Positions 1 to 18,850 of a stretch of 18,850 nucleotides of DNA are shown here, one piece after another. Position numbers and translations under genes: made by a program. Where the stretch lies: NCBI GenBank assembly GCA_038208905.1, contig JBBQYG010000066.1, forward strand, positions 1 through 18,850, in the 5' to 3' direction. Source of the DNA: Candidatus Sumerlaeia bacterium (GTDB taxonomy: Bacteria; Sumerlaeota; Sumerlaeia; SLMS01). The notes beneath the pieces were generated by a model, which did no database searches, was not told the origin of the DNA, and was given only the letters and a program-made list of their open reading frames with translations. Position 1 is the first letter of the stretch, and every line of letters starts with the position of its first letter.

Positions 1-404
1 GTGTCGGTGAGGTGGAGGGCGATTTCCACAAGTCCGGGGCGCGCAACGGTGGGTTCCCAGCGGGCGACCGTGGGGGCGAGCTGCTCGCTCTGGCCCCTCG
101 CCGTGCGGACGATGCCAGCGCGGGTGGGCGTGTAGCTCGCCTCGCCATCGGGGCCCACCGTGAAGAGCACTGCAAGCCCGGTAGAGGGATCCGCGGCGAC
201 GCGGAGGATGGTGGCTTGGTTGATGTCGGCGCGTAGCCGGCGCTGGAGCTTGTCGGCGTCCGAGGTGAACTCGGCGCGCATCGCCATCTCACGCCCGCGC
301 AGAGCGCTGGTTTGAAACAAGCCGAAGGTCCCGGCGGAGAGTAGGCCGATGATTGAAACGCAGATCATCAATTCGATCAGAGTGAAGGCCCGACAGCGAT
401 TCAT
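1..404 (-). CDS. Prepilin-type N-terminal cleavage/methylation protein (minor pilin/pseudopilin), partial at window edge
   Basis: Absent from the ORF track because it has no stop in the window. Manual translation from ATG 402-404 gives MNRCRA|FTLIELMICVSIIGLLSAGTFGLF..., a class III signal peptide with Glu+5. ATGA overlap with the upstream stop (401-403). Frame is open to the edge. Confidence 0.88.
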   Translation of the reverse strand, partial: MNRCRAFTLIELMICVSIIGLLSAGTFGLFQTSALRGREMAMRAEFTSDADKLQRRLRADINQATILRVAADPSTGLAVLFTVGPDGEASYTPTRAGIVRTARGQSEQLAPTVARWEPTVARPGLVEIALHLTD

Positions 405-1423
405 GGCATTGCCTCCGGGGGAGCGATCAGCGCATCGAACACGAGATCGGCGCGGCGGACAGGCGGGCCCACCGTGATGGAGATGCTGACAGGGACGAGA
501 CCATCGGCGCGCGGTTCGGCGATTGTAATGGACATCGGCAACTCTCCAGACTCGCGCTTCTCGGTGAGTCCTGCGACCAAGGGCGTGGCTCCCGCGCGTA
601 GGCGTTCGACCTCCGCGCTGACGACCAGCGCCGCCTCGCGTTCGTCCCGTGCCCGCGCCGAATGAATCGACGCGGTGTGAACTGCGTGCATATACATGGG
701 CGCTATGATCGCGATGATCGAAATGACGATGAGGAGTTCGATCAGCGTCATGCCTCGGGTGGACTTCGGCAGCCTCGGCAGCGAGCGGGGGCTCGAAACG
801 AACCGGGGAAGCGAGCGAGGGCGGAGGAGAAGGATTCCCCAGAGAATCGGCAAGAGGCTGTAGAGGAAAACACGCAGGGACGGATCAGTCATCAAACCGA
901 TGGCAAAGTTCAGGAAGACATTGCTGTTGATAGAGCTTAGCCACAACGAAGTCGAACGGGCGATCTCGACCATTCCAATTGAAAAGGAGAGCGCTGACCA
1001 AGCGATTGCCTGGAGGGGGCCGCGCATGGCGTCGCGTCCGTAGACCCATTCCCCGATGACGAGGATGGCAAGATACGAAATGACAATGCCGGCGAAAACC
1101 GCGATTTGCTGAGTTCCTGGAGCAATAAGGGCCAGCGTGCAAGCGACCACGATGACCACGGCAGACTTCAGAAAAGAACGCCGAAAACCCCGCGCGAGGA
1201 CGTACATGCCGACCGAAAAGAGTATCAGGGCAAAAGGGGCAATAATTCTTGCATTCTCGGCCTCAAAGCCGGGATTCGACCTGTTGAAGGACAGGCCAAG
1301 CGCCTTGCCAATTTGAACCCCGACAGGAAGGATAGAGATATACAAAAGAACGCCCACGATGACCGATACTGTGGTGGCGATCAGGATGCGGGGAAAGTTT
1401 ACTCGCTTCTCAGGTGTCGGCAT
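401..1423 (-). CDS. Polytopic membrane protein (~6 TM) fused to a C-terminal prepilin-type domain
   Basis: Start MPTPEKR at 1423 with GGAGGG upstream; the longer ORF extension overlaps the ATPase gene. Six hydrophobic segments, then an Arg/Pro linker, then KSTRG|MTLIELLIVISIIAIIAP (Met at 749-751). Confidence 0.85.
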   Translation of the reverse strand: MPTPEKRVNFPRILIATTVSVIVGVLLYISILPVGVQIGKALGLSFNRSNPGFEAENARIIAPFALILFSVGMYVLARGFRRSFLKSAVVIVVACTLALIAPGTQQIAVFAGIVISYLAILVIGEWVYGRDAMRGPLQAIAWSALSFSIGMVEIARSTSLWLSSINSNVFLNFAIGLMTDPSLRVFLYSLLPILWGILLLRPRSLPRFVSSPRSLPRLPKSTRGMTLIELLIVISIIAIIAPMYMHAVHTASIHSARARDEREAALVVSAEVERLRAGATPLVAGLTEKRESGELPMSITIAEPRADGLVPVSISITVGPPVRRADLVFDALIAPPEAMP

Positions 1424-2657
1424 GGCGATCAATCCCTCCCGGTGGCATGGTGAGGAAAAGGCGCTCGATCTCATCGGGCGTTGTATGTCCGCGTTCGAGA
1501 AGGGCGAGAGCCTCGGCAGTGGCCGGCGCGATGACGCGGAGCGACTGCTGAATCGCGCGGGCGTCATGGCGCGTGGCGAGGGCGGCGCTGGACTCCGGGC
1601 CGAGGACCGACCACTCCCCCACCGCGAGGCGACCCGCGTAGCCGATTCCTCCGCAAGCCTCGCAGCCAACCGCGGCATGGGCCCCGGCATCGTGCCATTC
1701 GGGAATCAGCGCGTCCAGCGGACGCGGTGCCGAGTCCACCGGGGCGGCGCACTTGGGGCACACGCGGCGCACGAGGCGCTGGCTGAGGATTCCGCCGAGC
1801 GCCGATGCGAGCATGAACGGCGCGGCGCCCATGTCGAGCAATCGGGCCAGCGCCTCGCCCGCGGTAAGTGTGTGCAGGCTGGAGAGCAGCCGATGACCCG
1901 TGAGCGCCGCGTTGAGAGCGACCTGGGCGGTTTCGGGATCGCGAATTTCGCCGACCAGAATGATCTCGGGATCCTGGCGCAGGAGCGCGCGAAGTCCACT
2001 GGCAAAGGTCAGGTTGCGCTCGGGGTCCACGGCGACCTGCGTCGCGAACGGCATCGGGATCTCCGGCGGGTCCTCCAGCGTGAGCACGGCCAGAGGCGAC
2101 GGTGAGACGGAGAACAGATGACTAAGTAGCGCCGCCAGCGTGGTGCTCTTGCCGCTCCCCGCGGGCCCAACGGCAAGGAGGAGTCCCTGTGGCCGGGCGC
2201 CCGCGCTGGAGAGCGCGTCGCACAGTGCCGGGCTGAAGCCGAGTTCCGCGAGCGCGGGAAGTTTCGACGGGCCGCCAAGCAACCGAATCACGGCCTTCTC
2301 GCCCGTCAGGGAGGGAATGATCGATAGCCGGGCCTCCGCCCTGGTGCCATTGGCGCCCGTGGCGAGCGTGAAGCGCCCCTCGATAACCGCCTCGCGGACG
2401 TAATCGGGGCAGCGGGCGAGGACCTTGAGGCGTGAAACGGCGCGTTCGTGCATGGCCCGTGTATAGACGCAGGCCTGGTGGAGGACGCCGTCGATGCGAA
2501 GCCAGAGGCGAGCCTCCCCTGCTGAAGTCGCCGGGAAAAGATGGAGGTCCGTGGCGCCGAGGGCCGCGGCCCCGTGGATCGTTTCGGAGAGCCACACCGC
2601 GACGTGGTCGAGGCTTTTGGGCGGAGAAATCATATACTGCCGGTCAGTAGTCGACAT
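1410..2657 (-). CDS. GspE/PulE/PilB family assembly ATPase, short form lacking the N1 domain
   Basis: ATDLHL and LRIDGVL (N2 domain), Walker A GPAGSGKSTT, Asp box TLEDPPE, Walker B RQDPEIILVGEIRD, His box GHRLLSSLHT, Zn motif CPKC...CEAC. Start MSTTDR at 2657 overlaps the pilC stop by 14 nt. Confidence 0.93.
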   Translation of the reverse strand: MSTTDRQYMISPPKSLDHVAVWLSETIHGAAALGATDLHLFPATSAGEARLWLRIDGVLHQACVYTRAMHERAVSRLKVLARCPDYVREAVIEGRFTLATGANGTRAEARLSIIPSLTGEKAVIRLLGGPSKLPALAELGFSPALCDALSSAGARPQGLLLAVGPAGSGKSTTLAALLSHLFSVSPSPLAVLTLEDPPEIPMPFATQVAVDPERNLTFASGLRALLRQDPEIILVGEIRDPETAQVALNAALTGHRLLSSLHTLTAGEALARLLDMGAAPFMLASALGGILSQRLVRRVCPKCAAPVDSAPRPLDALIPEWHDAGAHAAVGCEACGGIGYAGRLAVGEWSVLGPESSAALATRHDARAIQQSLRVIAPATAEALALLERGHTTPDEIERLFLTMPPGGIDRHADT

Positions 2658-3702
2658 TGCTAATCGTCCTGCCGATCCGGAGAATCGGAATGTACATTCC
2701 GAATGCCATCCATGCCACAAGGAAGCCGACGATGATGAGTAGCAGGGGCTCGAAGAATTCCTTCACCAGACGGATCGAGTGCTCCGCCCGGTGGCGATAG
2801 AATCCAGCGAGGGACTGGAGCGACTCGGCAAGCTGGCCGCGCTCCTGGGCGGAGCGAATCATGACGGAGAGCGTGGGTGGAAACACGGGCTGGCCTGAGA
2901 TCATGGCACCGAGCGCCTCGCCCTTGGCGAGACGCTGCTCGAAGTCCACCAGCGCAGAGCGCATGTAGCCGTTGACCGTCGATTCGGCAAGGAGCCCCAC
3001 CGCCTCGTTGAGGGGGATGCGGTTCTCCAGCATGAGCCCAAGGTGGCGGACAAATCGCGCGGTCTCGGCCATGCGGAGCGCGGGGCCAACGAGCGGCAGC
3101 GAGAGCATCCAGCGGCCCTGGCGATAGGAGGACCAGGAAAGCCCCGCCCCGACCCCGAGCAGCCAGAGGAAGCCGATGAGGACACCGGTCAGGGCGATCA
3201 TCGGAAAGAGATCGAGGCCAACTGTCGGCGTCGATTCCGCATTCCCTCCCATCGGCAAGTGACGGTAAATGTCCGTGACCTGGGGAACCACTCTCTGGAT
3301 CACAAAGATGGTAACAAGGAAGAGGACCCCCATGATGAAGGTTGGATAGATTGATATGCGCCGTAGCTGCTCGTGCATGGTGACGCCATCCTCCATCGTC
3401 GTGGCGAGGTCGCCCATCACGGCGGGGAGCGTCTGGCTTTCCTCCGCCATGCGAACGACTCGACGATAGGAATCAGGGAAAAGCCGGGGAGACTCCTCCA
3501 GTGCGGAGGAAAGCGTGGCGCCGGCTTCCAAGCGCAAGGCCACGTTGCGAACGCCTTCCTGCATCGATCGCGTCCCCGCCTCGTCGGCAAAGCTTCCGAC
3601 GACTTCCGCCAGCGGCGCGCGGGCCTGCATCGCCCCCGCGATGTGGCGGGTGAACAACGCAAGGTCCTGCGCCCTTTGGGCATAGCCCACGTGAATCTTC
3701 AT
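2644..3702 (-). CDS. Type II secretion system F / PilC family inner-membrane platform protein
   Basis: Two T2SSF repeats (LALFTRHIAGAMQARAPL...LEAGATLSSAL; RFVRHLGLMLENRIPL...LAKGEALG...QPVFPP...ERGQL...FFEPLLLIIVG) and three TM segments. AGGAG sits 6 nt before ATG 3702; alternative ATG at 3708. Confidence 0.92.
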   Translation of the reverse strand: MKIHVGYAQRAQDLALFTRHIAGAMQARAPLAEVVGSFADEAGTRSMQEGVRNVALRLEAGATLSSALEESPRLFPDSYRRVVRMAEESQTLPAVMGDLATTMEDGVTMHEQLRRISIYPTFIMGVLFLVTIFVIQRVVPQVTDIYRHLPMGGNAESTPTVGLDLFPMIALTGVLIGFLWLLGVGAGLSWSSYRQGRWMLSLPLVGPALRMAETARFVRHLGLMLENRIPLNEAVGLLAESTVNGYMRSALVDFEQRLAKGEALGAMISGQPVFPPTLSVMIRSAQERGQLAESLQSLAGFYRHRAEHSIRLVKEFFEPLLLIIVGFLVAWMAFGMYIPILRIGRTISNVDY

Positions 3703-3724
3703 CGCCATCTCCTAAATGTTGGAC

Positions 3725-4249
3725 TTACGGGCCAAAGACGTTGTGATCGCCGGGCGAAATTGTGCCGTTGGTTGGGTCGTAGTAGAGCACGTTTACGGGA
3801 GTCTTGGTTGCATCCAGGTCCAGCACCGCATCGGGCCCGGGAACCGCCAGCGCATACAGCGCCATGCCACCCCGGATCGGAACGCTGAACGGCTCGTCCT
3901 CGGTGTGAAACTGGGACAGATTGATATACGTGGCGCGTGTTTTTTGCATTCCATCGGTATAGGGAGCGCGGAATTCGGGGAGAGAAACCATATACGCAAC
4001 GGGTGTCGTGATGCAGGTTAGCTCGCCGGGGTCCGACTTGCGCGCCTCGCGGTTGAGGGGATACGCACGATGGTCGATGCGATAACTCTCAATGGCGCTT
4101 GCGATGGTTACCAAATCGGCTCGCTCCTGCGAAACACGGGCGCGGGTGGATGCCTCGAGGAAGTTGGGGACGGCGATAGCCATCAGAACGGTAATGATGA
4201 TCGCCACCACCAGCAGCTCGATATAGGTTACTCCGCGCCGTCGGCTCAT
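3725..4249 (-). CDS. Prepilin-type N-terminal cleavage/methylation protein (GspG-like major pseudopilin/pilin)
   Basis: MSRRRG|VTYIELLVVAIIITVLMAIAVPNFLEA...ADLVTIASAIESYRIDHRAYP and C-terminal YYDPTNGTISPGD. GGAGGG RBS upstream of ATG 4249. Confidence 0.9.
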   Translation of the reverse strand: MSRRRGVTYIELLVVAIIITVLMAIAVPNFLEASTRARVSQERADLVTIASAIESYRIDHRAYPLNREARKSDPGELTCITTPVAYMVSLPEFRAPYTDGMQKTRATYINLSQFHTEDEPFSVPIRGGMALYALAVPGPDAVLDLDATKTPVNVLYYDPTNGTISPGDHNVFGP

Positions 4250-4263
4250 TCGATGGGTCCCTC

Positions 4264-4773
4264 CTAGATCAGGTTGTACAGCTTCATCAGCTTGGCCTCG
4301 ATGCGCCGCCGTTCGTCGATGCGGTCGCGCGCGAGGGAAACATCCGCTGGATCGACGCTGGCGGAGAGAGCGGCGACTTCCCTCTCTCGCTCGGGCGGGC
4401 GAATGCCCGCGGCAACGGCCGCCCCATTGAGCCAGAGCGAGATCGCGAGCAGCGCCGCCGTGGCCGCGGTTCCCTGGGACAGGTGAATCAGCGGCGCGAG
4501 CCGACGGCGGCGGAGGCGTTCGGAGAGCGCCCCCTCGGCGTCGAGACGGTCCTCGAGGCGGAGCGCAAGATCGGCGAACCATGCGTCGCCGGGGACATCA
4601 AGCCCCTCTTCGCGGGCGGCGCGGATGATGGCCTCCGCCCCCTCCTCCAATTCGCGGCACGCGGGGCACCGGTCGCGGTGCTCGCGCATGGCGGAACGCT
4701 CCGTGTCGGGAAGCGTCCCCGACGCGAACTCATCCAGCCGGTCCTCGAATTCGCCACAGGCAATCCGCATCAT
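4264..4773 (-). CDS. Zinc-finger (zf-HC2/ZAS) anti-sigma factor with one TM helix
   Basis: ACGEFEDRLDEFASGTL...REHRDRCPAC (C...HxxxCxxC), then hydrophobic TAATAALLAISLWL. ATGA overlap with the sigma stop; GGAGG upstream. Confidence 0.88.
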   Translation of the reverse strand: MMRIACGEFEDRLDEFASGTLPDTERSAMREHRDRCPACRELEEGAEAIIRAAREEGLDVPGDAWFADLALRLEDRLDAEGALSERLRRRRLAPLIHLSQGTAATAALLAISLWLNGAAVAAGIRPPEREREVAALSASVDPADVSLARDRIDERRRIEAKLMKLYNLI

Positions 4774-5372
4774 GTTCCTTCCTCCCGGACGCGATTCGGC
4801 TGCGCCTCCCCAAGTGCTCCCTCGGCGCGCAGCAGCTCGCGCAGGCGCCGTATCGCAAAGTGGAGGTGCGCCTTGATGGCGCCCTCGCTGCACTGCATCG
4901 CCTCGGCAACTTCGGCGATGGACATCCCTTGATAGTGGCGCAGGGCGAATGCCGCCTGCTGGCGCTCCGGCAATCGGGCCGACAACACACGGATCCGCGC
5001 CGCCATGTCGCTGTTGACGATGTCGCCCAGCGGGGACTCGGTGGCGCGCTCCAGCGGATCGATCGCGACGACGCCGTCGGCCCGGTGCTGCCCGTCGCGG
5101 CGGCTTCGCTTTCGCAGCAGGTCGATGGACCGCCGCGTGGAAACCTGAATCAACCAGGCACGGGCGGAGCGAATCGCGCGTGCCTTGGCGCCCAGGCGTG
5201 CCAGCTCCAGAAAGGCGTCCTGGCTGGCCTCCTCCGCGTCCTCGTAGTTGCCGGTGATGCGAAGGGCCACGGCATAGGCGGTGCGGACGTGGGCGTCATA
5301 CAGGGCGCGAAAGGCCTCCCTGCTCCCTTTCGAGAGCTGCTCCAGCAGGATGTTGTCCGTGTTCTCGGCCAA
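4770..5372 (-). CDS. ECF RNA polymerase sigma-70 factor
   Basis: Region 2 EAFRALYD...DAEEASQDAFL...RAWLIQVSTRRSIDLLRK and region 4 LPERQQAAFALRHYQGMSIAEVAEAMQCSEGAIKAHLHFA. TTG 5372 preferred over TTG 5444 because a candidate promoter lies at 5408-5433. Confidence 0.93.
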   Translation of the reverse strand: MAENTDNILLEQLSKGSREAFRALYDAHVRTAYAVALRITGNYEDAEEASQDAFLELARLGAKARAIRSARAWLIQVSTRRSIDLLRKRSRRDGQHRADGVVAIDPLERATESPLGDIVNSDMAARIRVLSARLPERQQAAFALRHYQGMSIAEVAEAMQCSEGAIKAHLHFAIRRLRELLRAEGALGEAQPNRVREEGT

Positions 5373-5407
5373 GGCGTCGGGCTTTCTCTGCGCAGTCTGC
5401 TTGAATA

Positions 5408-5433
5408 GTCGCCAGAGGGGATGGAAGGGTTTA
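5408..5433 (-). promoter_or_regulatory. Putative ECF-type autoregulatory promoter
   Basis: Minus strand TAAAC-N17-CGAC just upstream of the sigma gene, matching the generic ECF pattern of AAC at -35 and CGt/a at -10. Confidence 0.5.
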
Positions 5434-5462
5434 GGGGTGATCAAACAAGGGACGCAATTAAC

Positions 5463-6257
5463 CTACTCCGGGTCTTGAGGAAGGCCGATCTGCCGGATGG
5501 CCCGGCGACAGACGCCGCGCAGGATGCTGACCTCGTTGCGTGTGGCGCCCCCCCGGGCGAGGAGGTTTCGGAGGCGGGCCACGGCATTGTCGGCTCGGCG
5601 GTCGGCGCTCCAGCCGGTGGCTGCCATCAGCTCGCGGAGGTGGTTTTCCAGCCCAAGAATTTCCTCGTGAGTGGCGGGGGCATCGTCGCCGTCTCCACCG
5701 GCAAGGGGGTTGAGTGCCCGGCGCGATGGGGCCAAGCCGAGTCCATCTTCCGTACACTCGACGCGACGATGGGCATCGGCCATCCCGGCGAGGGCGATCC
5801 CCACGGCCTGGACGAGGTTGAGCGAGGGGAAGTCGGGGGAGGTGGGGAGGCTCCAGAGAAAGTGACACAGTTCGAGTTCGGCGCCCTCCATGCCGCTCTC
5901 TTCTCGTCCAAAGACGAGGGCGCCCCGTGCGACGGCCCCTCGCTGGCGGAGCAGGGACTGCGGGACGAGTTCGACGCAATCGACCCGGTGGTGCCGCCCG
6001 TTGACTCCGGTCAGCCCGATCACGAGTTCGCGGTCGGCGATGGCCTCGGCCAGCGTCTCGAATACCGGGGCGGCTCGCAGGAGCTCCGCCGCGCCGGAAC
6101 TGAACCGCCGCGAGTCGGGGCCGTTGACCTCGCAACGGGGCGCCACGACGCGGAGCCCCCCGGCGCCTAGGTTCTTGACAACTCGCGCCACGCCGCCCAC
6201 GTTGCCGGGCTCCTTGGGCGATACCAGAACGACGATCCAGGGCCTTAGCAATTCCAA
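5463..6257 (-). CDS. trmJ: TrmJ/LasT family (SPOUT) tRNA methyltransferase
   Basis: IVVLVSPKEPGNVGGVARVVKNLG, ALVFGREESGM, PSLNLVQAV, and C-terminal helical domain ATHEE...RLRNLLAR...EVSILRG. TTG 6257 with GGAGG 7 nt upstream. Confidence 0.9.
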   Translation of the reverse strand: MELLRPWIVVLVSPKEPGNVGGVARVVKNLGAGGLRVVAPRCEVNGPDSRRFSSGAAELLRAAPVFETLAEAIADRELVIGLTGVNGRHHRVDCVELVPQSLLRQRGAVARGALVFGREESGMEGAELELCHFLWSLPTSPDFPSLNLVQAVGIALAGMADAHRRVECTEDGLGLAPSRRALNPLAGGDGDDAPATHEEILGLENHLRELMAATGWSADRRADNAVARLRNLLARGGATRNEVSILRGVCRRAIRQIGLPQDPE

Positions 6258-6399
6258 AACGGTGCCTCCATTTGAGCTAACTCGGGCCGATGCGGAGCCT
6301 GAATCGCGGCCATCCGGAAGGCAAGGGCGGCGATTTCCTTTGCGCGAGTGCGGCACTGCGCCCCAAGCATTGCGGGATTCGACAGCATCGAGGAAGTTC

Positions 6400-7479
6400 A
6401 TGGCCGACAAGTCATCGACGGACGACAGGGCGATTACATTGCTGGTGCAGCAGGGCCTGATTACCGACAGTCAGGCGAAGCGGCTTCGCACCGCCGTCAA
6501 GCGGGGCATGGCGCTGGGCGAGGCGGTGGTCAAGACGCCGATGGTGGATCCGGTGAAGCTGATCACCATCCAATCGATGGTGGCCCAGAATCTCCCCGTA
6601 GCCCCGCCTCAGGAGCCTGCGAAACCACCACTCGTCCCCGACCCCGACATGGATCTGGAAGTCGATCTGATCGATGATCGCGAGCCGCTCAAGATTGGCA
6701 ACGACGAGTTCCGCATCAAGAACCGGGGCCCAGTGGGGAGTGTTTCCGACGATTTGGACCTCGACTTCGACGACGAGGCGAATATGGAAACGGTCGGCCC
6801 CGCCCCGCCGATTCGCCCCAAGCTTCCTAGCATCGACCTCGCCGAGGCCCCCACGCTTTCCAAGGGCGAGATCGACGATCTGGCCGACAGCGATTTCGAA
6901 TTCCCCGATCCCGAGCCCCTTGCCGCGGAAGAGCGCGAGCAGTTCAAGGAGCAGGTGGACTCGCTGCTGGACGAAGCGTTCGACACGAAATCCAAGCCGC
7001 GCATCGTAAAGCCAAGCCACGGTACGCCCGCGCCACCGATGCCATCCTATGTGAGCCCGCGCTTGGAACCGCTCGCCGACAAGGAGAGCTATCGCGAAGG
7101 CAAGCGACAAATCCAGACGTTTGATTTGGCCGACGATGAGGGAATCAACCTCATCCGTCAGGTGAATGAAATCTTCGAGCGCGCGATCAACGAGAATGCC
7201 TCGGCGTTCCAGCTCGTCGCCGACGCCGTGCCCCAGAACCTGCGCATGTTCGACGCCAACGGGCGGATTTCATCCGAGGATTCCATCGACGCGGATAGCA
7301 TCGAGAAGGTGGTCAACCGCATCAAGGTGATGGCCCGCATCGAGGTGTGGCGCCGCCTGCCTGTGCAGAAGGGCTTCCTGAGACTGATCCACGCGGGAAC
7401 AAGCTGGGAATGCTTCCTGAAGTCGGAGACCGAGGCCGAAAGGAAGGAAGTAGTTTCGGTGTACTTGGAGCGAGCCTGA
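6400..7479 (+). CDS. Hypothetical protein: degenerate MshEN/GSPII_E_N-like N-terminus, acidic Pro-rich linker, PilB/GspE N2-like C-terminal domain, no ATPase
   Basis: ATG 6400 after GAGGA. N-term LLVQQGLITDSQ...GMALGEAVV. C-term LIRQVNEIFERAINENAS...VVNRIKVMARIEVWRRLPVQKG resembles PilB IVRLVN.I...AI...ASDIH...SRIKIMA.LDI.ERRLPQDG. Confidence 0.8.
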   Translation: MADKSSTDDRAITLLVQQGLITDSQAKRLRTAVKRGMALGEAVVKTPMVDPVKLITIQSMVAQNLPVAPPQEPAKPPLVPDPDMDLEVDLIDDREPLKIGNDEFRIKNRGPVGSVSDDLDLDFDDEANMETVGPAPPIRPKLPSIDLAEAPTLSKGEIDDLADSDFEFPDPEPLAAEEREQFKEQVDSLLDEAFDTKSKPRIVKPSHGTPAPPMPSYVSPRLEPLADKESYREGKRQIQTFDLADDEGINLIRQVNEIFERAINENASAFQLVADAVPQNLRMFDANGRISSEDSIDADSIEKVVNRIKVMARIEVWRRLPVQKGFLRLIHAGTSWECFLKSETEAERKEVVSVYLERA

Positions 7480-7507
7480 GGCGACGCAGGCGATGGGATA
7501 ACAATTC

Positions 7508-7540
7508 GGCCCCCGGCGGGAAAATCTCGCATCGGGGGCC
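7508..7540 (+). terminator. GC-rich hairpin downstream of the 6400-7479 gene (possible terminator)
   Basis: GGCCCCCG...CGGGGGCC with inner GCGGGA/TCTCGC pairing; the U-tract is weak. Confidence 0.4.
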
Positions 7541-7651
7541 TTGCTGCGTCAGCGTCGCGTTACTTTCAGATCGCCGAAGGAAGTGGCCGCGTCGGCCTTG
7601 GCCCATAAACCGGCGGCAAGCAAAGAGAATGGAGAATCACTGTTTCCCCGC

Positions 7652-7679
7652 TTGACAGGGAACCACCGCCTTGCACCTT
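7652..7679 (+). promoter_or_regulatory. Putative sigma70 promoter of the leuA leader
   Basis: Perfect TTGACA at 7652-7657 and a weak -10 (CACCTT, 7674-7679), just upstream of the T-box leader. Confidence 0.5.
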
Positions 7680-7721
7680 CATGACCCATCGGCAGCCGAA
7701 GTGGGCTGCCGCATCGCGAGC

Positions 7722-8026
7722 AAAGGCGATGATGGGGAGTAGTATGAAGCCCCGGCGAGCCAGCAGAGAGGGACCTCCCGGCTGAAAGGGTCCTGCCGCC
7801 AGCTTCTGAACTCGCCCCTGAGCCGCTGGTGCGAACCGCCCATTTCTTCAGGGCCAAGTAGAGCCAGCCGGGTTGGCCTCCCCCGTTAGAGGAGAAATGG
7901 AGAGTTCCCCGCGCAACAGCAGGCCGCGCGTCGGGAAATCGGGGTGGTACCGCGCTCGAAAGTTTTTGGCGCCCCCGAAGTCTGAACGGGTAAGCCCGCC
8001 ATGACTTCGGGGGCGCCCGCATTTTT
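7722..8026 (+). ncRNA. T-box riboswitch, leucine specifier (CUC), transcription-attenuation type
   Basis: Stem I has GCGATGA (GA motif), AGTAGTA, AGAGAG and GCTGAAA. Specifier loop GAA-CTC-G at 7808-7814. Stem II GAA/AGTA. F-box CCGTTA at 7883-7888. T-box GGGTGGTACCGCG at 7942-7954, followed by a terminator. Lies directly upstream of leuA. Confidence 0.95.
7968..8026 (+). terminator. Intrinsic terminator (attenuator) of the T-box
   Basis: GGCGCCCCCGAAGTC (7968-7982) pairs perfectly with GACTTCGGGGGCGCC (8003-8017), then TTTTT at 8022-8026. The 5' arm can alternatively pair with the T-box sequence (antiterminator). Confidence 0.9.
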
Positions 8027-8060
8027 AGCGGCCGGATGGCCGCACAGGAGGTCTTCCATC

Positions 8061-9656
8061 ATGGAAACGACGGACCGCGTGTTGATCTTCGACACCACGT
8101 TGCGCGACGGCGAGCAATCCCCGGGATGCAGCATGACGCCCAAGGAAAAGCTGGAAGTGGCCCGTCAGCTAGCGCGACTCGGCGTCGACGTGATCGAGGC
8201 GGGATTCCCGATCAGTTCCGTGGGGGACTTCGAGAGCGTCCGCGCGATCGCGGAGATTGTCGGCAATCTGGAAATCAATGGCATGGAGCCGCCGATCATC
8301 GCGGGCCTGGCACGGGCGAAGGAACTCGACATCATGCGGACGGTGGAGGCGGTCAAGGCGGCCCGCCGACCGCGAGTCCACACGTTCCTCTCCACGTCTC
8401 CGATCCACCGCGAGCGCAAGCTGCGCATGAGCCGCGAGAAAGTGCTCGCGATGGCCGTGGAGGCCGTCCGCCTGGCGAAGTCCCACGTGGAGGACGTCGA
8501 GTTCTCCCTGGAGGACGCGGGGCGCACGGAGTACGACTACATGGTGGAAGTGGTGCAGGCCGTCATCGAGGCGGGCGCCACAACGGTCAACATTCCCGAC
8601 ACGGTGGGCTATTGCCAGCCGGAGCAGTATGCGGATCGCATCCGCCATATCATGGAGAACGTTCCCAACGTGGGGAAGGCGATCATCAGCGTGCATTGCC
8701 ACGACGACCTGGGCCTTGCGGTGGCGAACTCGCTGGCGGCGGTGAAGGCCGGCGCGCGGCAGGTCGAGTGTACCGTCAACGGCATCGGAGAACGCGCGGG
8801 AAACACGTCGCTCGAGGAAGTCGTGATGAACCTGCGTACGCGGCGCGACTACTTCGGGATCGATACGCGAATCGTTTCCGCGGAGATATATCCAACGTCG
8901 CGGCTTGTCTCCCAGATGACAGGCTCGCGCGTTCAAGCGAACAAGGCCATCGTGGGCGCCAACGCCTTCGCCCACGAGAGCGGCATCCATCAGGACGGCA
9001 TGCTGAAGGACAAGGAAACCTATGAGATCATGACCCCTGAATCCGTCGGCTGGAAGGGCGAGGGGATGGTCATGGGCAAGCACTCGGGGCGACATGCCTT
9101 CGCGACGCGCATGAAGGAAATCGGCTTCGAGATGGAGAGCGAGCCGCTTGAGAGGGCATTCACGCGCTTCAAGGAACTGGCCGACAAGAAGAAGGAGATA
9201 TTCGACGAGGATCTGATCGCCATCGCCGAGGAAGTCCTCTTCAGGGAATCCAGCCAGGCGTGGGACCTGACGTATATGCACGCCAGCAGCGGCACGGAGA
9301 CCCTGCCCACAGCGACGGTCAAGATGACCTTCAAGGGCGAAGTGCTCGTGGACGCAGCAATGGGCGACGGTCCCGTGGACGCCGTGTTCCATGCCATCGA
9401 CCGCATCACCGGGAATCCCCTGAAGGTTCACGAGTACCACTTGGACGCGGTAACGGAAGGCCAAGACGCGCAGGGTCGGGTCACACTCGTCGTCAGCCGC
9501 CAGGAGGCCGAGTCGGTCAAGGTCAAGGGGAGCGGCATCTCGACCGATGTGGTGCTGGCCTCGGCGAAGGCCTACGTGAATGCGTTGAACGCTCTCGACC
9601 GCCTGGAGAAGTCCCACGGCGGCGAGGTGAAGAAGGTGAGCACGATGGCGCCGTGA
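8061..9656 (+). CDS. leuA: 2-isopropylmalate synthase
   Basis: IFDTTLRDGEQSPG, SVHCHDDLGLAVANSL, NGIGERAGN, NAFAHESGIHQDG, GKHSGRHA, and regulatory domain GDGPVDA...YVNALN. AGGAGG RBS; Leu T-box upstream. Confidence 0.97.
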   Translation: METTDRVLIFDTTLRDGEQSPGCSMTPKEKLEVARQLARLGVDVIEAGFPISSVGDFESVRAIAEIVGNLEINGMEPPIIAGLARAKELDIMRTVEAVKAARRPRVHTFLSTSPIHRERKLRMSREKVLAMAVEAVRLAKSHVEDVEFSLEDAGRTEYDYMVEVVQAVIEAGATTVNIPDTVGYCQPEQYADRIRHIMENVPNVGKAIISVHCHDDLGLAVANSLAAVKAGARQVECTVNGIGERAGNTSLEEVVMNLRTRRDYFGIDTRIVSAEIYPTSRLVSQMTGSRVQANKAIVGANAFAHESGIHQDGMLKDKETYEIMTPESVGWKGEGMVMGKHSGRHAFATRMKEIGFEMESEPLERAFTRFKELADKKKEIFDEDLIAIAEEVLFRESSQAWDLTYMHASSGTETLPTATVKMTFKGEVLVDAAMGDGPVDAVFHAIDRITGNPLKVHEYHLDAVTEGQDAQGRVTLVVSRQEAESVKVKGSGISTDVVLASAKAYVNALNALDRLEKSHGGEVKKVSTMAP

Positions 9657-9673
9657 TGGCGCTTGCCGGGAAG

Positions 9674-9703
9674 CCCCGCCCGATGGATGGATATCGGGCG
9701 GGG
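9674..9703. repeat. Perfect 11-bp inverted repeat between leuA and the TA pair
   Basis: CCCCGCCCGAT-N8-ATCGGGCGGGG with no U-tract. Could be a terminator/stabilising hairpin or an operator. Confidence 0.6.
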
Positions 9704-9731
9704 ACAACCGGGCCCCACAAGGAGGCACGTC

Positions 9732-9989
9732 ATGATTGTCACGCTGGAAGAAGCCAAGAACTCGCTGGAAGAACTAATTGCGCGCAGCGAGCGCGGCGAG
9801 GAAATCACGATTTTTGAAAGTGGGGCCAAGCCAATTGCCCGCCTAGTTCACGTGGAAACCGATACGCTAGCGGAGGATCCGCAGCAAGGCAAGCGCTTGG
9901 GAGGTTGGACCTTCGGGCTCGGCAAAGGAACCATCTGGATGGCCGATGACTTTGACGAGACCCCAGAAGAGTTTCGGGACTACGTGTGA
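9732..9989 (+). CDS. Phd/YefM family antitoxin
   Basis: MIVTLEEAKNSLEELIARSERGEEITI...KPIARLV and tail KGTIWMADDFDETPEEFRDY. AGGAGG RBS; GTGA overlap with the toxin gene. Confidence 0.9.
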   Translation: MIVTLEEAKNSLEELIARSERGEEITIFESGAKPIARLVHVETDTLAEDPQQGKRLGGWTFGLGKGTIWMADDFDETPEEFRDYV

Positions 9990-10222
9990 CCCAAGTCATT
10001 ATCGACAGCCATGTTTTCCTATGGGCGCGGGAGGCGAGATCATTGCTTTCTCGCTTCGCGGGAGAGATACTTGCGGACCCGGCGATTCTGAAGTTCCTGA
10101 GCATGGCGAGTGTTTGGGAGATGTCGATAAAAATTGGGACTGGGAAGCTAAAGATTTCGAACTCTCTCGAATTCGGCCGCGACCGGATCTTCGACCGCTA
10201 TGGCGTCGAGCGCATCTGGTGA
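9986..10222 (+). pseudogene. vapC: VapC/PIN toxin with an internal in-frame deletion (78 aa)
   Basis: Keeps the N-term IIDSHVFLW...SMASVWEMSIKIGTGKL and the usual C-term DRIFDRYGVERIW, but lacks the central segment with the H.DPFDR motif found in ~130-aa members. Confidence 0.8.
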
Positions 10223-10237
10223 GCGCGCTTCCCCACT

Positions 10238-11329
10238 TTGCGATCCATTGACCTCCTGATCGTCGGCGGCGGCTCCATCGGGTTGAGCTGCGCGCTCCAC
10301 GCGGCGGAGAGATTCCCCAATTTCCGTATTGCCGTGATGGATTCGGGAAACCTGCCGGGCGTCGCATCGCGGGCGGCGGCGGGGATGCTGGTGCCGTTCG
10401 CGGAGTTCGAGGAGGACAGCCCGCTCTTTCGACTCTGCGTTGAGAGCCTTGAATACTATCCGGAGTTTCTGCGCCGCTTTCGCATCGATGCGCCGCTCGA
10501 TGTTGCGGGGACGCTGACTCCTATCCTGCCGGGTGGTTGTGATCGCGTTGCACGGGTTGAGGCGCTGGCTTCGACCCTCGCGGAGTGTCGGCGCTTGGGT
10601 CGCGACGAATTGATGACGGAGGAACCGACCCTCGTTGGTGGCGCATCGAGCGGAGCCCTCTGGATTCCCGGTGCGCTGATCGATCCGCGGCGGCTGCATG
10701 GGGAACTCCTCAGCCGCGCCCGGGAGGCGGCAATCGAGTTCATCGAAGGCGCGCCGACCTCATCGGAGATTGTTGGCGGCCGAATTGCCTCAATCGTTTC
10801 CTCTAAGAGTAATCGCCTCTCACCCGGCCAGGTGGTGCTGGCGACGGGCGCGTGGTCGGAGGAGGCAGGCGCCGTTTTCGGCCTTCGCGCGCCCATTGTT
10901 CCCATCAAGGGTCAGGTGGCGAGATTCGACTGCCCAGATGGATTGCTGCGCCATGTGATCCACACCCACGGCGTCTATCTGGCCCCGCGCCCCGGGTCGG
11001 GGATCGTGTTTGGGGCGACGATGGAAGTGGCAGGATTCGACAGCGAGGTGTCTAAAGCGACGATGGCGAATTTGCGAGAAGCCGCGCTGGATTTGGCGCC
11101 GGGCCTTGCAAAGTACCCCGTGGCCGAGAGCTGGATCGGGTTCCGCCCCAAGTTTCCCGACGGTCTCCCCGCCATTGGGCGCAGCAGCCAAGTTGCCAAC
11201 CTGATCATCGCAACGGGGCATTTCCGGAACGGGATCCTGCTGACTCCGGCCACGGGAAAGATCGTGGCCGACGCGATCGGAGGCGACGGCGGCATGAGGT
11301 GGCTGCGCCCTGCGCGTTTGGCGCTCTGA
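10238..11329 (+). CDS. thiO: Glycine oxidase ThiO (FAD-dependent DAO family)
   Basis: LLIVGGGSIG, ASRAAAGML, IDPRRL, VVLATGAWS, PIKGQ, GATME..GFD, WIGFRP..PDGLPAIG, ATGHFRNGILLTPAT. Confidence 0.9.
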   Translation: MRSIDLLIVGGGSIGLSCALHAAERFPNFRIAVMDSGNLPGVASRAAAGMLVPFAEFEEDSPLFRLCVESLEYYPEFLRRFRIDAPLDVAGTLTPILPGGCDRVARVEALASTLAECRRLGRDELMTEEPTLVGGASSGALWIPGALIDPRRLHGELLSRAREAAIEFIEGAPTSSEIVGGRIASIVSSKSNRLSPGQVVLATGAWSEEAGAVFGLRAPIVPIKGQVARFDCPDGLLRHVIHTHGVYLAPRPGSGIVFGATMEVAGFDSEVSKATMANLREAALDLAPGLAKYPVAESWIGFRPKFPDGLPAIGRSSQVANLIIATGHFRNGILLTPATGKIVADAIGGDGGMRWLRPARLAL

Positions 11330-11334
11330 GGAAG

Positions 11335-11384
11335 CGCAATCCCGTTGCCCGCCGCGATGCGATGGCGGGTAGTGGAGCATTGCG
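11335..11384 (+). terminator. Imperfect hairpin after thiO
   Basis: CGCAAT...GTTGCCCGCC-loop-GGCGGGTAGT...ATTGCG; no U-tract. Confidence 0.3.
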
Positions 11385-11408
11385 AAATCGAAACGGGAAA
11401 ATCCCTCC

Positions 11409-12936
11409 ATGAGACTTGGCCAAAGTTGCGCAGCTTGCGCGATATCGCTGATTCTAGCAGCGCCGGCGGCTGGTATCGCCCAAGCGCAGCCGCCTGCGGC
11501 GGTGAATCAAGCAGGACGAGGTTGTCACGCTAAACCTGTCGCCCGAACAGGGCCCAGAGGACGTGTTGGCGATCCTGCGCTCGGGGGACAAGTTCGAGAC
11601 GAACAGCTACGTTTCCCGTGTCTTCGAACTGGAGCACGCGTTGGCGCTCGAGATTCGTTCGGCCGTCGCCGAGATGACGGGCGCCGAGAAGGGATTCACA
11701 CGCGCGGTCACAACGAAGCCGACGGACGGCTCTGCGGCGCGGCAATTCCTCCTGGTGACCACGACTCCAAGACAAATGGAGTATATCGCGGGAGCCGTCG
11801 AGCAGCTGGACGTTCCCTTCATCGTCAACAATTCGGGCACCGCCCGGCGGTCGGTGCGACTCAAGCACCGGCTGGCATCCGACCTTGCCGTCATTCTGAG
11901 GGCGACACGCCTTAGCCCAACGGGGAAGGCAGTGGCCGACGACTTGACCAACACCCTGTATTATGACGATACCCAGTATGTTGCGGGCGAGGTGGACAAG
12001 TACGTAAGCTTTTTCGACGTTCCCACGCCACAGGTGGAGTTCGACGTCAGGATCATTGAGATAAGGGAGGAAAACAGCGGGAAGCTCGGTCTCGATTGGG
12101 ACGCTTGGAAAAGCATGGTGGGCGGCCAGATCGGCCTGACAGCGACGAGTCTGGAGGGCGGCGAATCCTTTTCCCGCGTGGATACGCTTCTTTCGCTCGA
12201 TGCGAACGTGTTGGCGGCGTTCCTCAACTACACCGTGCAAACGGGGACGGCGCGCCTGGCACAGCGGTCTCGCCTCAATGCGTCGAACCTTCAGCCCGCC
12301 GTTATTTCCGACGCCCGACACGTTCCCGTCTATGGGTACCAGCGTTCGACGCGGGATCCGAAGATTCTGACCGAGGCGAACCCGAGGGTGGATGCGGGCA
12401 ATGTGTATGACGATAACGAAGCCGCCTCCCCGCGCACAGTGACTATCGTGCCGCCTGTGGAAAATCGCCTCGTCGATCTTTCCGATGACGAGGCCGGCCT
12501 GCTGATCGCGATTCGGCCTGTGATCGGCACGGAAACAGTCAGCGCCAACATCAATGTATCGATGAACACCGTGACAGGATTCGACGATCAGGGTCGTCCG
12601 CTTTTGTCGCGCCAGAGTCTTGAGAACCTGTTCACGCTGCACGATGGCAAGGAACTCCTGTTGGGAACACTTGAACGTGAAATGGCGACGCGCCAGCGGC
12701 GGGGCATTCCGTTGCTGATGTCGGTCCCGGTGCTCAAGTATCTGGTCAGCGTGGAAGCGACATCACGGCAGAAGTCGCGGCTGTTCCTTCTGGCGACACC
12801 ACGTTTTTCCTCAGTTCGATATGGCGCGCCCACCATGGCCGCATCCGAATCAGAGGGCCTGCTGAACATAACGGATCGCCCAGTCGAACTGGAGGACGGG
12901 GTCACGGCGAATACGATCGAGGACCTGAGAAACTGA
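11409..12936 (+). CDS. Secretin family (type II/III secretion, GspD-like) protein, interrupted by a +1 frameshift near 11505; main ORF is 11563-12936
   Basis: Secretin motifs DVPTPQVEFDVRIIE...KLGLDW, GLLIAIRPVI, TLHDGKELLLG, GIPLLMSVPVLKYL, LFLLATP. The Sec signal peptide MRLGQSCAACAISLILAAPAAGIAQA is in the adjacent frame from ATG 11409. Confidence 0.82.
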
Positions 12937-12942
12937 GGACGA

Positions 12943-12975
12943 AGAACGGCCGCGCGGTTATTGCGCGGCCGTTCT
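12943..12975. terminator. Probable bidirectional terminator between the convergent secretin and flotillin genes
   Basis: AGAACGGCCGCGC-N7-GCGCGGCCGTTCT, a perfect 13-bp stem. Confidence 0.75.
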
Positions 12976-13003
12976 GAATTGTCAAAGGTGAGGGGCTAGG
13001 CAA

Positions 13004-14575
13004 TCACGGCGCCGGTGGTGGTGGCGTTGCGGCTGGCGGTGGCGTGGATTCTTTTGGCCCCATCTTCCCCATGCCGGGAAGCCGCGAGACGACGTCCCCG
13101 AGGTTAATGCCGGTCAGTGACTCGACAATCGGCGGCAGGCCGCCGATGATTTTCGTCACATCCTGAGTCAGCTTGTTCACGGTACCGTCGTCCCCGCCCA
13201 TGCTGACGAAGGTGATGCGGTCGGTCTTGGAGAGCGGCAGGGCGATCTCGCGGGCGATCTCCGGCAACTTGTCGATGATGAGCTGCGCGATGGCCGCCTC
13301 GTTGTACTGCTTCCATGCCTCGGCCTTCTTTTCGTTGGCCTCGGCCTCGGCAAGACCCCGCGCGCGGATCGATTCGGCTTCCGCGAAGCCGCGCGCCCTG
13401 AGGACATCGGCCTCCGCCATGCCTCGGGCTCGGGAGGCTTCCGCCTCGGCAAGGCCCGCGGCACGCACAACGTCGGCTGAGGCGAAGCCATTCTTCTTCT
13501 CGGCTTCGGCGTGGCCGTGGGCCTCGCGCTCCAGCTTGGTCGCGGTGGCCTCAGCCAGCTTCTCGATGCGGTAGGCCTCCGCGTCGGCGGGCTTGCGGAC
13601 GGTCGCCTCCAGCTCGCGCTCGCGGCGTTCGATTTCCTTCTTCTGGACTTCGATGAGGCCGCTGCGCTCGACGACCTGAATTTTGACTTCCTCGGCCTTG
13701 GAAATCTGCATGGTGATGTTGCGCTGGATGTCATAGGAGAGTTCCGACTCGGCGCGCCGCTGGTTTACCGATGCCTCGTAGTCCTGCACCTTCATGCGAT
13801 AGTCGCGGTCGGCCTCTGCGATGCGGGTCTCGGCGCCGAGTCGGGCGATCTGGCCCTCCTGGTTGGCGGCGGCGCTGCGGGCGGTGGCGTCGCGGTCGGC
13901 TTCGGCCTGGCCGATGATGGCGTCGCGCTTGACCTGTGCCGTGCGGGGCTTGCCGAGGGCGTCCAGGTAGCCGTTGGGATCGGTGATGTCCTTGATCGTG
14001 AAGCTGACAATGCGCAGGCCCATGTTGCGCATGTCGGCGATGGCGATGGATTGCACGCTCTGGGCGAACTTGTCGCGTTCCTTGTAGATCTCCTCCACGG
14101 TCATCGTGCCCAGCACGGCGCGGAGATGGCCTTCCATCGTCTCGAGGGCGACGCGGTGGATCTCCGCCTCGCTCAGGCCAAGGAACTGCTCCGCGGCGGT
14201 GTCGATGGACTGCTGGTCACTGTCAATCTTCACCTGCGCCACGCCGCCTACCACGACGGGCACACCCTCGATCGTATAGACCTCGGGGGTCCTCACCATC
14301 AGGGTGAGGATGTTGAGCGACATGCGATCAACACGCTCTACGATCGGATAGACGAGGACACCGCCACCGCGAATCGTGCGGAAGCCCTTGCCTTCCTTCC
14401 CGTGGACAAGCCGGCCGGAGATGACCAGCACCTCGTTGGGGCCGACCTTCTTGTACCGGAAGGCAAAGAGGATCAGCAGAATCAGCACCAAGGGGATGGC
14501 GATGATGAAGAAAAGCAGCGTGCCGCCAATGGCCTCCAGAGAGAGGGCGTTGAGGACGGTCATGGGAAGATTCAC
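13004..14575 (-). CDS. Flotillin-like SPFH/band 7 protein (FloT/YuaG type)
   Basis: N-terminal TM, RYKKVGPNEVLVISG, GGGVLVYPI, AAEQFLG, LEGHLRA-like TMEGHLRAVLGTMTVEEIY, GYLDALGK, AEA coiled-coil repeats and DKLPEIAREIALPL. AAGGAG before GTG 14575. Confidence 0.94.
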   Translation of the reverse strand: MNLPMTVLNALSLEAIGGTLLFFIIAIPLVLILLILFAFRYKKVGPNEVLVISGRLVHGKEGKGFRTIRGGGVLVYPIVERVDRMSLNILTLMVRTPEVYTIEGVPVVVGGVAQVKIDSDQQSIDTAAEQFLGLSEAEIHRVALETMEGHLRAVLGTMTVEEIYKERDKFAQSVQSIAIADMRNMGLRIVSFTIKDITDPNGYLDALGKPRTAQVKRDAIIGQAEADRDATARSAAANQEGQIARLGAETRIAEADRDYRMKVQDYEASVNQRRAESELSYDIQRNITMQISKAEEVKIQVVERSGLIEVQKKEIERRERELEATVRKPADAEAYRIEKLAEATATKLEREAHGHAEAEKKNGFASADVVRAAGLAEAEASRARGMAEADVLRARGFAEAESIRARGLAEAEANEKKAEAWKQYNEAAIAQLIIDKLPEIAREIALPLSKTDRITFVSMGGDDGTVNKLTQDVTKIIGGLPPIVESLTGINLGDVVSRLPGMGKMGPKESTPPPAATPPPPAP

Positions 14576-14640
14576 GGGGAACTCCTTTGGCTGAGTCTGA
14601 GGCCTTGGACAACTGCAACGGGATCGTCGGTCGGGTATGC

Positions 14641-14666
14641 TACGACCGGACCCGGAGGTTTGTTCA
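14641..14666 (-). promoter_or_regulatory. Putative ECF (SigW-like) promoter of the flotillin gene
   Basis: Minus strand TGAAC-N17-CGTA, about 65 nt upstream of the start codon. Confidence 0.45.
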
Positions 14667-14852
14667 ATGCGTCGGGGACTTTATTTGCTGCTCGGATCAA
14701 GGGCGCAACCGTCTTCGGCTGATAGACGAGGGGCGGTTTATAGAACGCGGCCACGTTTCTCCTCGCGCGGCGGCCCCACGGTGGCGTTTACTTTGCGCCA
14801 CGGGGCGCCGGGGCCGGTTGCCGGGACCCGGCTCTCCACCAACGGACCAATG

Positions 14853-16604: not shown

Positions 16605-16614
16605 GTCGGCTCCT

Positions 16615-16980
16615 TCAGCGAATCGCCGCAGCCGGGCGCATGAGAGAATCCGAAACGAGGTCCTTCAGGCACTTCCCGGCCTCCGGATAGCGGGTGTGGC
16701 CATAGACACTTTCTGGAATTGATCGGATCGCGCTGGCATACTCCTTCTGTCGCACGGTTTCCTGAGGATGGGTCCATTCGGTGGGCGCACAGGGATACGC
16801 TAGTAGGCAGTCCAGCGCCTTGCGGAGACTGCCGCCGGTGGGAGCATCGAACTTGTAGAGATCGACGCCGACTTTCCCGCCGATCAGGCCCAGCTTGAAG
16901 AAGTGCTCCAGGTTCTCCGTGCAGTAGCTCCACGAGCGCGTCCGCGCGAGTGTCTGGGGCTGGGTGCCTTCCGGCGTATT
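16615..16980 (-). pseudogene. C-terminal remnant of an alginate lyase family (PF05426-type) gene
   Basis: Absent from the ORF track because it has no start codon. Manual translation: TPEGTQPQTLARTRSWSYCTENLEHFFKLGLIGGKVGVDLYKFDAPTGGSLRKALDCLLAY...EWTHPQ...*. This matches the recalled pattern PDG.QP.EL.RT.S..Y...NL...VGVDLW...G.SLRKALD.L.PY...W...Q. Confidence 0.75.
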
Positions 16981-17036
16981 CGTCGAGCGAGCCGCGCTAC
17001 GAAGCGGAGGACGCTGACACCTGATTGGGATGCCCC

Positions 17037-18521: not shown

Positions 18522-18686
18522 GGGGCCTTCCGATTCGGGCGCGATCGACTTCTCTCCCTCGGTGGGAAGGCGGGAGCCTCTTGCATGGCGGGGGGTGATC
18601 GCAAGGGCTAGATGGCTGATCTTTGGCGGTCCATCCGGATAAGGCCCAATCGACGGGCATTAGGTGAAGCAGCGTCAGCTCGGCGC

Positions 18687-18850
18687 CTACTTCAGCGATG
18701 GAAGGAGCAACCTGAAGCGCGCCCCCTTGCCGGGTTCCGATTCGGCGGCGAGACTGCCGCCGGCGGACTCCGCGAGGGCGCGGCTCAGGCTAAGTCCGAG
18801 GCCCGTGCCCTCGGCGCGCGTGGTGACAAAAGGATCGAAAATCTGGCGGA
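18687..18850 (-). CDS. Sensor histidine kinase, C-terminal HATPase_c part (partial at window edge)
   Basis: Manual translation RQIFDPFVTTRAEGTGLGLSLSRALAESAGGSLAAESEPGKGARFRLLLPSLK* contains the F and G2 boxes. Confidence 0.9.
   Translation of the reverse strand, partial: RQIFDPFVTTRAEGTGLGLSLSRALAESAGGSLAAESEPGKGARFRLLLPSLK

Follow-up and report, generated by a model that had tools for sequence, protein, structure and literature searches.

A minor pseudopilin encoded in frame with a multi-helix membrane domain in a Candidatus Sumerlaeia bacterium

The fused gene and its internal cleavage motif

The window analysed here is a DNA stretch of 18,850 nucleotides from Candidatus Sumerlaeia bacterium (NCBI GenBank assembly GCA_038208905.1, contig JBBQYG010000066.1, positions 1 to 18,850 of the forward strand). 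Near its beginning, on the minus strand, lies a gene (product P0001) in which a minor pseudopilin is encoded in frame behind an N-terminal domain of about six transmembrane (TM) helices, with a predicted prepilin-peptidase site between the two parts. The gene and its parts are as follows.

401..1423, minus strand: fused gene P0001, one open reading frame (ORF) of 340 amino acids plus stop
815..1423, minus strand: N-terminal membrane domain, residues 1-203, about six TM helices (hydropathy and AlphaFold 2, AF2)
752..814, minus strand: basic linker, residues 204-224, ending in Gly224 at position -1 (sequence and alignment)
737..754, minus strand: predicted prepilin-peptidase site, Gly224 / Met225-Thr-Leu-Ile-Glu229 (PF07963, TIGR02532, and conservation in 16 of 16 members)
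404..751, minus strand: mature GspI-like minor pseudopilin, residues 225-340 (AF2 and fold comparison)

The start codon (ATG at 1423) overlaps the stop of an upstream GspE-like gene (1410..2720), and the next pseudopilin gene (3..404) begins with an ATG that overlaps the stop codon. A hydropathy scan placed six TM segments at residues 13-29, 60-76, 84-100, 107-123, 139-155 and 183-199, which are matched by AF2 helices at residues 10-31, 53-78, 82-100, 105-128, 136-158 and 181-203. Counted from the N-terminus to the linker, the loops hold 3, 3, 3, 0, 2, 1 and 7 lysine or arginine residues; the basic loops that a first-pass annotation, made from the letters alone, had described after the second, fourth and sixth helices are therefore present, with 3, 2 and 7 such residues. 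The sequence of the site is LPKSTRG / MTLIELLIV, where Gly224 occupies position -1 and Glu229 position +5; it is matched by the hidden Markov models (HMMs) N_methyl of Pfam (PF07963; residues 220-241, 26.6 bits, cut-off 21.2) and TIGR02532 (residues 223-241, 25.1 bits, cut-off 16.3), as that annotation had expected for the region near residue 220. Its leading observation, an internal cleavage motif after about six TM helices, is thus upheld by the ORF translation, both HMMs, hydropathy and AF2; the mature length that it gave is also correct, at 116 residues after Gly224 (340 - 224), and so is its statement that the linker lacks a potential start codon, with no ATG, GTG or TTG between residue 191 and the +1 ATG (residue 225).

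Class III signal peptides have a short, hydrophilic, N-terminal leader; in P0001 the site stands at residue 224, behind about six TM helices. The pilin half carries the defining features of type IV pilins and pseudopilins except for this leader, which is neither short, hydrophilic nor N-terminal. The internal position of the site is more than chance, with the same arrangement found in all 16 aligned members of the family. Annotation is touched directly: pilin finders that scan only near the N-terminus would miss such fused genes.

Position -1 is Gly in 15 of the 16 members and Ala in the remaining one; Leu+3, Ile+4 and Glu+5 are found in all 16, position +2 is Thr or Ser throughout, and PF07963 is listed for every member. 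Position +1 is variable (M, V, T, I or F). Judged from the alignment, the cleavage signature is under selection; a lack of conservation of the G/xTLIE motif among fused homologues, named beforehand as evidence against the idea, was not what was found. One variant in the 90% identity cluster of P0001, P0016, has Lys for Met at residue 225, a residue that is unusual at position +1 in prepilins.

The linker comprises 21-38 residues with 6-10 lysines or arginines in all 16 members; in P0001 there are seven basic residues and no Asp or Glu within a 25-residue loop, and AF2 confidence over the linker is low (predicted local distance difference test, pLDDT, 49-59). Since the linker is strongly basic in all members, the positive-inside rule would place it in the cytoplasm, and the periplasmic location that would have spoken against the first-pass annotation is not predicted. 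The linker also carries a motif, P-x-x-L-P-R, in which P212 and L215 are invariant (10 sequences), and this motif together with the last TM helix forms the best-conserved region upstream of the site. In P0001 itself the motif occurs twice, through a tandem 10-residue duplication at residues 201-220 (PRSLPRFVSS / PRSLPRLPKS); the first copy also reads ...LPRL in five of the seven cluster variants.

According to PMC10191384, the last residue of a prepilin leader is invariably Gly or Ala, and cutting takes place on the cytoplasmic side. The genome encodes a PilD-type peptidase on contig C123 (A24_N_bact, E 4e-32; Peptidase_A24, E 4e-11), the translation of which contains two CxxC pairs and a GMGDVK motif; this gene is predicted to encode a canonical bifunctional prepilin peptidase.

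For the mature domain (residues 225-340), AF2 predicts with a pLDDT of 82-91 an alpha1 helix (residues 227-277) and four strands, i.e. the lollipop fold of pilins. VIA-align matched this domain to 5bw0_B, one chain in the XcpV-XcpW complex, with a Z-score of 7.5 and a root-mean-square deviation of 2.5 Å over 79 of 89 residues, and Foldseek gave a TMt of 0.68 to 9a1f_R (chain of an Xcp pseudopilus model; E 0.22) and of 0.60 to 5bw0_B, with E-values of 0.2-0.3. The domain is called GspI-like here and not a proven GspI, because the score with the GspI HMM (TIGR01707; 25.5 bits) is under the cut-off of 44.35; PF02501 is listed for three of the 16 members (best E 1.4e-4).

The fusion is a real gene and no assembly artefact. 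The 90% identity cluster of P0001 comprises seven distinct variants of 340 amino acids from NCBI, ENA, JGI and Logan assemblies, which are 97-99% identical to P0001, none with a stop codon or a changed length. DNA runs from at least four studies contain the stretch, with at least half of the sampled words present. No indel and no joint was reported when contigs from four runs were aligned to window positions 300-1700; the junction between TM part and pilin part is bridged by three records (X1 record 3, X2 record 9 and X3 record 17), and X2 record 9 covers the whole of positions 300-1700 as a single piece.

Distribution of the fusion and the membrane domain

A profile of the N-domain and linker only (A4) was run on 75 genomes of the phylum and matched nine of them, with one copy each and nowhere else within the genome; these carriers are spread over five families of the class. 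The N-domain is in frame with the pilin in eight of the nine carriers and encoded as two genes in one (G042), so the homologues are mostly fused, and are not always two separate genes, the outcome that the first-pass annotation had named as pointing to a lost stop codon or an assembly error. The full N-domain lies in the open frame of the pilin in seven carriers (G000, G006, G029, G046, G054, G058 and G061); the in-frame N-domain of G030 is a shorter one (profile positions 69-225). Upstream of the fused gene of G030 (L031 = G030:C115; 3-1328 and 1345-2181), a TM-rich ORF in another frame ends 13 nucleotides before it; this ORF could be the frameshifted first part of the N-domain, or an extra gene.

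A phmmer search against 1.84 billion representative sequences gave 12 matches at E<=1e-3. Beyond P0001's own cluster, these comprise five multi-TM fused forms of 275-344 amino acids (P0003, P0004, P0005, P0006 and P0012; the alignment of P0004 spans residues 7-337), and the remaining matches are short pilins. P0008 (157 amino acids) consists of one TM helix, linker and pilin, and P0007 (137 amino acids) has a 22-residue leader without TM helix; these two may be further reduced forms, or truncated gene calls. In the relatives P0007, P0009, P0010 and G012, a similar pilin domain follows a short leader of the ordinary kind, and the number of TM helices among relatives falls from six to four, one or none. 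A word-index protein search with P0001 returned its own cluster only, and with alignment A1 one extra match, the candidates being saturated by pilin-motif words; a related-locus search of genome contigs, keyed on the generic pilin motif, returned one irrelevant locus. The fused-leader feature is real, conserved and rare.

In G042 (L064 = G042:C13), gspE is followed by ORF-A (253 amino acids, 1222-1980) and ORF-B (171 amino acids, 2088-2600). ORF-A consists of the N-domain and linker, with its stop codon a few residues past the linker motif (26% identity to the G054 protein, E 3e-21). In ORF-B, a single TM helix and another linker copy precede the pilin (57% identity, E 3e-56); the module of last TM helix plus linker is duplicated in this genome. 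As the split form shows, the membrane domain can be a protein in its own right, the linker motif is kept without a pilin behind it, and the split pilin retains a TM-containing leader; this form points to two products. The genus of G042 also includes G054, which carries the fused form, and G062, which gave no match and is 98% complete.

An orthologous GspE was sought in five genomes that lack the fusion; only paralogues of 34-42% identity were found, and no orthologous operon with an unfused pilin. A second type of system was observed in G012 (L005 = G012:C11), G052 (L032) and G069 (L033), with the order F(-F)-I-J-x-G and a GspI-like pilin with a short leader.

No known family was found for the TM domain in Pfam (all 16 members, E<=5, noise excepted) or in NCBIfam, and the best score in the ESM Atlas for residues 1-215 was 0.79, within the noise range. 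Two candidates for its identity were rejected. A prepilin peptidase of the A24 type is not indicated, with PF01478 unlisted for all 16 members (E<=5), an hhalign probability of 0.2% against the genome's own PilD, and no Asp among the invariant N-domain columns; neither is a GspF/PilC platform protein, with an hhalign probability of 0.5% against the genome's GspF and PF00482 unlisted at E<=5. An origin of the N-domain from a mobile element was also discarded, there being no flanking inverted repeats and no nuclease family listed.

In the structural check that the first-pass annotation had proposed, AF2 gave helices that match the hydropathy segments, and the fold search with the TM domain was uninformative, at a pLDDT of 45-69. 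VIA-wide returned generic helical bundles and designed proteins only (Z-scores of 9.1 and 8.5, below the level that is meaningful for helical bundles); because model confidence is low, these fold searches carry no information and are no evidence of a new fold. Complex prediction of the N-domain plus linker with the mature pilin gave a score of 0.00, i.e. no answer. Upstream of the linker the N-domain aligns poorly among members, and the invariant columns are M1, G103, P136, P212 and L215 only, among which no charged or polar residue occurs. Throughout the family, the pattern of hydrophobic helices is maintained. The coding part of the TM domain (815-1423) has a GC content of 0.547 and a GC content at third codon positions (GC3) of 0.65, compared with a GC3 of 0.71-0.85 in the neighbouring genes and a GC content of 0.637 for the whole window.

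The surrounding operon

The fused gene always follows gspE in the loci found, within a minimal operon of the order G-F-E-(TM·I)-J-K, where TM·I stands for the fusion. The other genes in the window are as follows.

1410..2720, minus strand: GspE-like ATPase, short form (PF00437, E 2e-79; TIGR02533 matched only from model position 117)
2644..3708, minus strand: GspF-like platform protein (PF00482, E 4e-44)
3725..4249, minus strand: GspG-like major pseudopilin (HMM matches)
3..404, minus strand: J-like next pseudopilin, cut by the contig end (full length of 159 amino acids in L056)
4264..5444, minus strand: sigma factor of the extracytoplasmic function (ECF) type (4770-5444) and zf-HC2 anti-sigma candidate (within 4264-4893)

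The best matches of GspE, GspF and GspG are to type II secretion system (T2SS) models, all under the curated cut-offs, and no GspC, GspL or GspM was seen in the operon. The GspE-like ATPase is without about the first 116 positions of TIGR02533, which represent the N-terminal domain that binds GspL in the classical T2SS; an ATPase that lacks this domain fits the absence of GspL and GspM genes from the operon. On its gene content, the locus is a predicted minimal type IV filament system of T2SS flavour. The order F-E-fusion-pilin is retained in G006, G046 and G054, and the membrane domain is vertically conserved within this one operon.

A near-identical metagenome contig (L056) continues past the window end with the 159-residue pseudopilin, an ORF of 138 amino acids and then unrelated genes. 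The N-terminus of the 138-residue ORF (L056 4496-4912), a basic leader followed by G-H-A-L-L..., is GspK-like and lacks Glu5, and the ORF matches no family; together with the 159-residue pilin it completes an I-J-K-like trio, and neither of the two gave a match to a J or K HMM at E<=0.001.

The ECF sigma factor and zf-HC2 genes lie directly upstream of the pseudopilin operon and in the same orientation, and an ECF sigma factor is also found upstream in G006 (L053 3354-4145). The proposal of the first-pass annotation that the membrane domain might be a sensor linked to the anti-sigma factor gained no support beyond this adjacency; conserved polar residues and a known sensor fold are both absent from the TM domain.

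A small secretin (11563-12936, plus strand; 457 amino acids, Secretin and Secretin_N domains) is encoded about 7 kb from the pseudopilin operon. Its best NCBIfam match is PilQ, far under the cut-off, and leuA, a flavin adenine dinucleotide (FAD) oxidoreductase gene and other genes intervene.

Proposed processing of the fused precursor

P0001 shares with class III prepilins and pseudopilins the G/xTLIE site, Glu+5, the hydrophobic alpha1N helix, the lollipop fold and the basic segment before the site, and with type IV systems the clustering with E-type ATPase and F-type platform genes and the presence of a PilD-type peptidase in the genome. It resembles GspI/XcpV in its mature length of 116 residues, and may do so in the alpha1 helix with four-stranded sheet (the VIA comparison to 5bw0_B) and in the position of the gene before J-like and K-like genes; unlike GspI/XcpV, it scores under the TIGR01707 cut-off, stands in an operon without GspC, GspL and GspM next to an ATPase without N-terminal domain, and lacks the short leader of GspI. 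The long-leader forms known from type IVb pilins and from the major pilins of Streptococcus sanguinis have leaders that are hydrophilic and N-terminal, according to PMC10191384, whereas the 'leader' of P0001 comprises 224 residues with about six TM helices and a conserved motif adjoining the site. Modular type IV pilins such as S. sanguinis PilB also have an extra module grafted onto a pilin, but their module is C-terminal and displayed on the filament (PMC8179133), and that of P0001 is N-terminal, membrane-embedded and upstream of the site. Full-text literature searches, with subscription journals and supplements outside their scope, found no prepilin described as having a transmembrane leader. 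The architecture of P0001 contradicts the textbook definition of the prepilin leader as short, hydrophilic and disposable.

The interpretation offered by the first-pass annotation, a polyprotein split by the peptidase or a membrane domain that tethers or gates the pilin, has partial support. Our preferred reading, to which we give about an even chance, is that the membrane domain would act as a giant membrane-embedded leader which prepilin peptidase removes, with the pilin freed and the membrane domain left behind. The precursor would consist of two parts, a fast-evolving bundle of about six TM helices with a conserved basic cytoplasmic linker in the position of the leader, followed by the GspI-like minor pseudopilin. 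The PilD-type peptidase of the genome would cut after Gly224 on the cytoplasmic face and release a normal pseudopilin of 116 residues with Met225 as its new N-terminus; the freed pseudopilin would initiate the pseudopilus, jointly with the products of the J-like and K-like pilin genes downstream, in a minimal GspG-F-E machine, and the membrane domain would be left as a membrane protein of its own. An uncut, tethered pseudopilin could presumably not be extracted from the membrane, so that processing would gate initiation. The cytoplasmic location of the site, its cleavage and any role of the released domain are points that we infer; the strict Gly or Ala at -1 is what would be expected if the bond is cut, and the linker length of 21-38 residues is about that of long natural leaders.

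Several observations weigh against this reading. The conservation of P-x-x-L-P-R, even in ORF-A of G042 where no pilin follows, is not what a disposable leader usually shows, and may indicate that the linker has a function beyond its removal; textbook prepilin leaders are hydrophilic (PMC10191384); and no RNA runs are listed among the runs that contain the stretch. The assignment to GspI is weak, with the HMM score under its cut-off and Foldseek E-values of 0.2-0.3. Among the variants in the four runs, the TM part shows 2 synonymous and 4 non-synonymous changes versus 8 and 1 in the pilin part (Fisher two-sided p = 0.089), and between P0001 and L056 the numbers are 2 and 5 versus 5 and 3 (p = 0.31). 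These counts are small, the two comparisons overlap, and the 17 differences between window and L056 in 1020 nucleotides are too few to settle the matter; looser constraint on the TM domain than on the pilin is a hint only, and the domain may be a tolerated passenger and not a working part.

Prepilin peptidases are GxGD aspartyl proteases and are usually seen as leader-trimming enzymes. If the preferred reading is true, their substrate range would be widened to polytopic membrane precursors, and the fused gene would provide a natural case for asking how the peptidase recognises its site; it may also point to a means by which minimal systems without GspL/M-type parts control how pseudopilus assembly begins. 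In an extended version, which we consider rather improbable, the peptidase would be a polyprotein-processing enzyme: one gspE-coupled product would be cut 1:1 into an initiator pseudopilin and a new polytopic assembly factor, the basic P-x-x-L-P-R tail of which would dock on the GspE/GspF motor and replace GspL/M-type components, and the cut, by arming the pilin and freeing the factor, would serve as a checkpoint. That the domain has been kept in five families, with a conserved tail, speaks for a role after its release; its relaxed constraint and varying number of helices speak for a passenger.

It is also conceivable, but in our view doubtful, that no cleavage takes place and the pseudopilin stays tethered to a multi-TM anchor as a fixed element of the machine, either a stator keeping the I-J-K complex at the platform, or a subunit serving as base or stopper, able to dock on the growing pseudopilus yet not extractable. 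Such a tether would suit the linker motif and last TM helix, which are conserved beyond what is usual for a disposable leader, and the short forms (ORF-B of G042 and P0008), which retain one TM helix and the linker before the pilin; moreover, no prepilin with a hydrophobic leader is known according to PMC10191384. However, Gly or Ala is found at -1 in 16 of 16 members, and this residue is tied specifically to cleavage; relatives whose pilin domain is similar have short leaders (P0007, P0009, P0010 and G012), and the N-domain is separately encoded in G042. In known systems GspI sits at the filament tip, to which a tethered GspI-like subunit could not travel.

Alternatively, the precursor could be cleaved as in the preferred reading with the membrane domain a passenger without function, derived from a neighbouring membrane-protein gene or an expanded leader fused in frame; the domain would persist through the dependence of the pilin on its start codon, and removal by the peptidase would make it cheap. 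We think this unlikely. The relaxed constraint on the TM part would agree with it, as would the absence of charged or polar residues among the five invariant N-domain columns, the change in TM number from six to four, one or none, and the GC3 that is lower than in the neighbouring genes. Yet the domain has been kept in eight of nine carriers over five families despite the bacterial deletion bias, with its hydrophobic helix pattern maintained and the linker motif preserved even in the pilin-less ORF-A; flanking inverted repeats and a nuclease domain are lacking.

That the pilin is instead made from an internal start codon (two overlapping products), or that the gene is a gene-calling or assembly artefact, is very improbable: linker codons that would give leaders of 6-19 residues do occur in L004 (M230), L006 (M241), L007 (TTG243), L009 (TTG289) and L012 (GTG150), but about one ATG, GTG or TTG is expected by chance per 20 codons, the linkers of the window and of G046 (L011) contain none, and no stop or frameshift was found in the seven variants or in the contigs of the four runs. 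The sole Shine-Dalgarno-like GAGG lies 1 nucleotide before the +1 ATG, which is AAG in P0016; this ATG is not needed as a start codon, since P0016 has Lys at the position and homologues have F, V, T or I.

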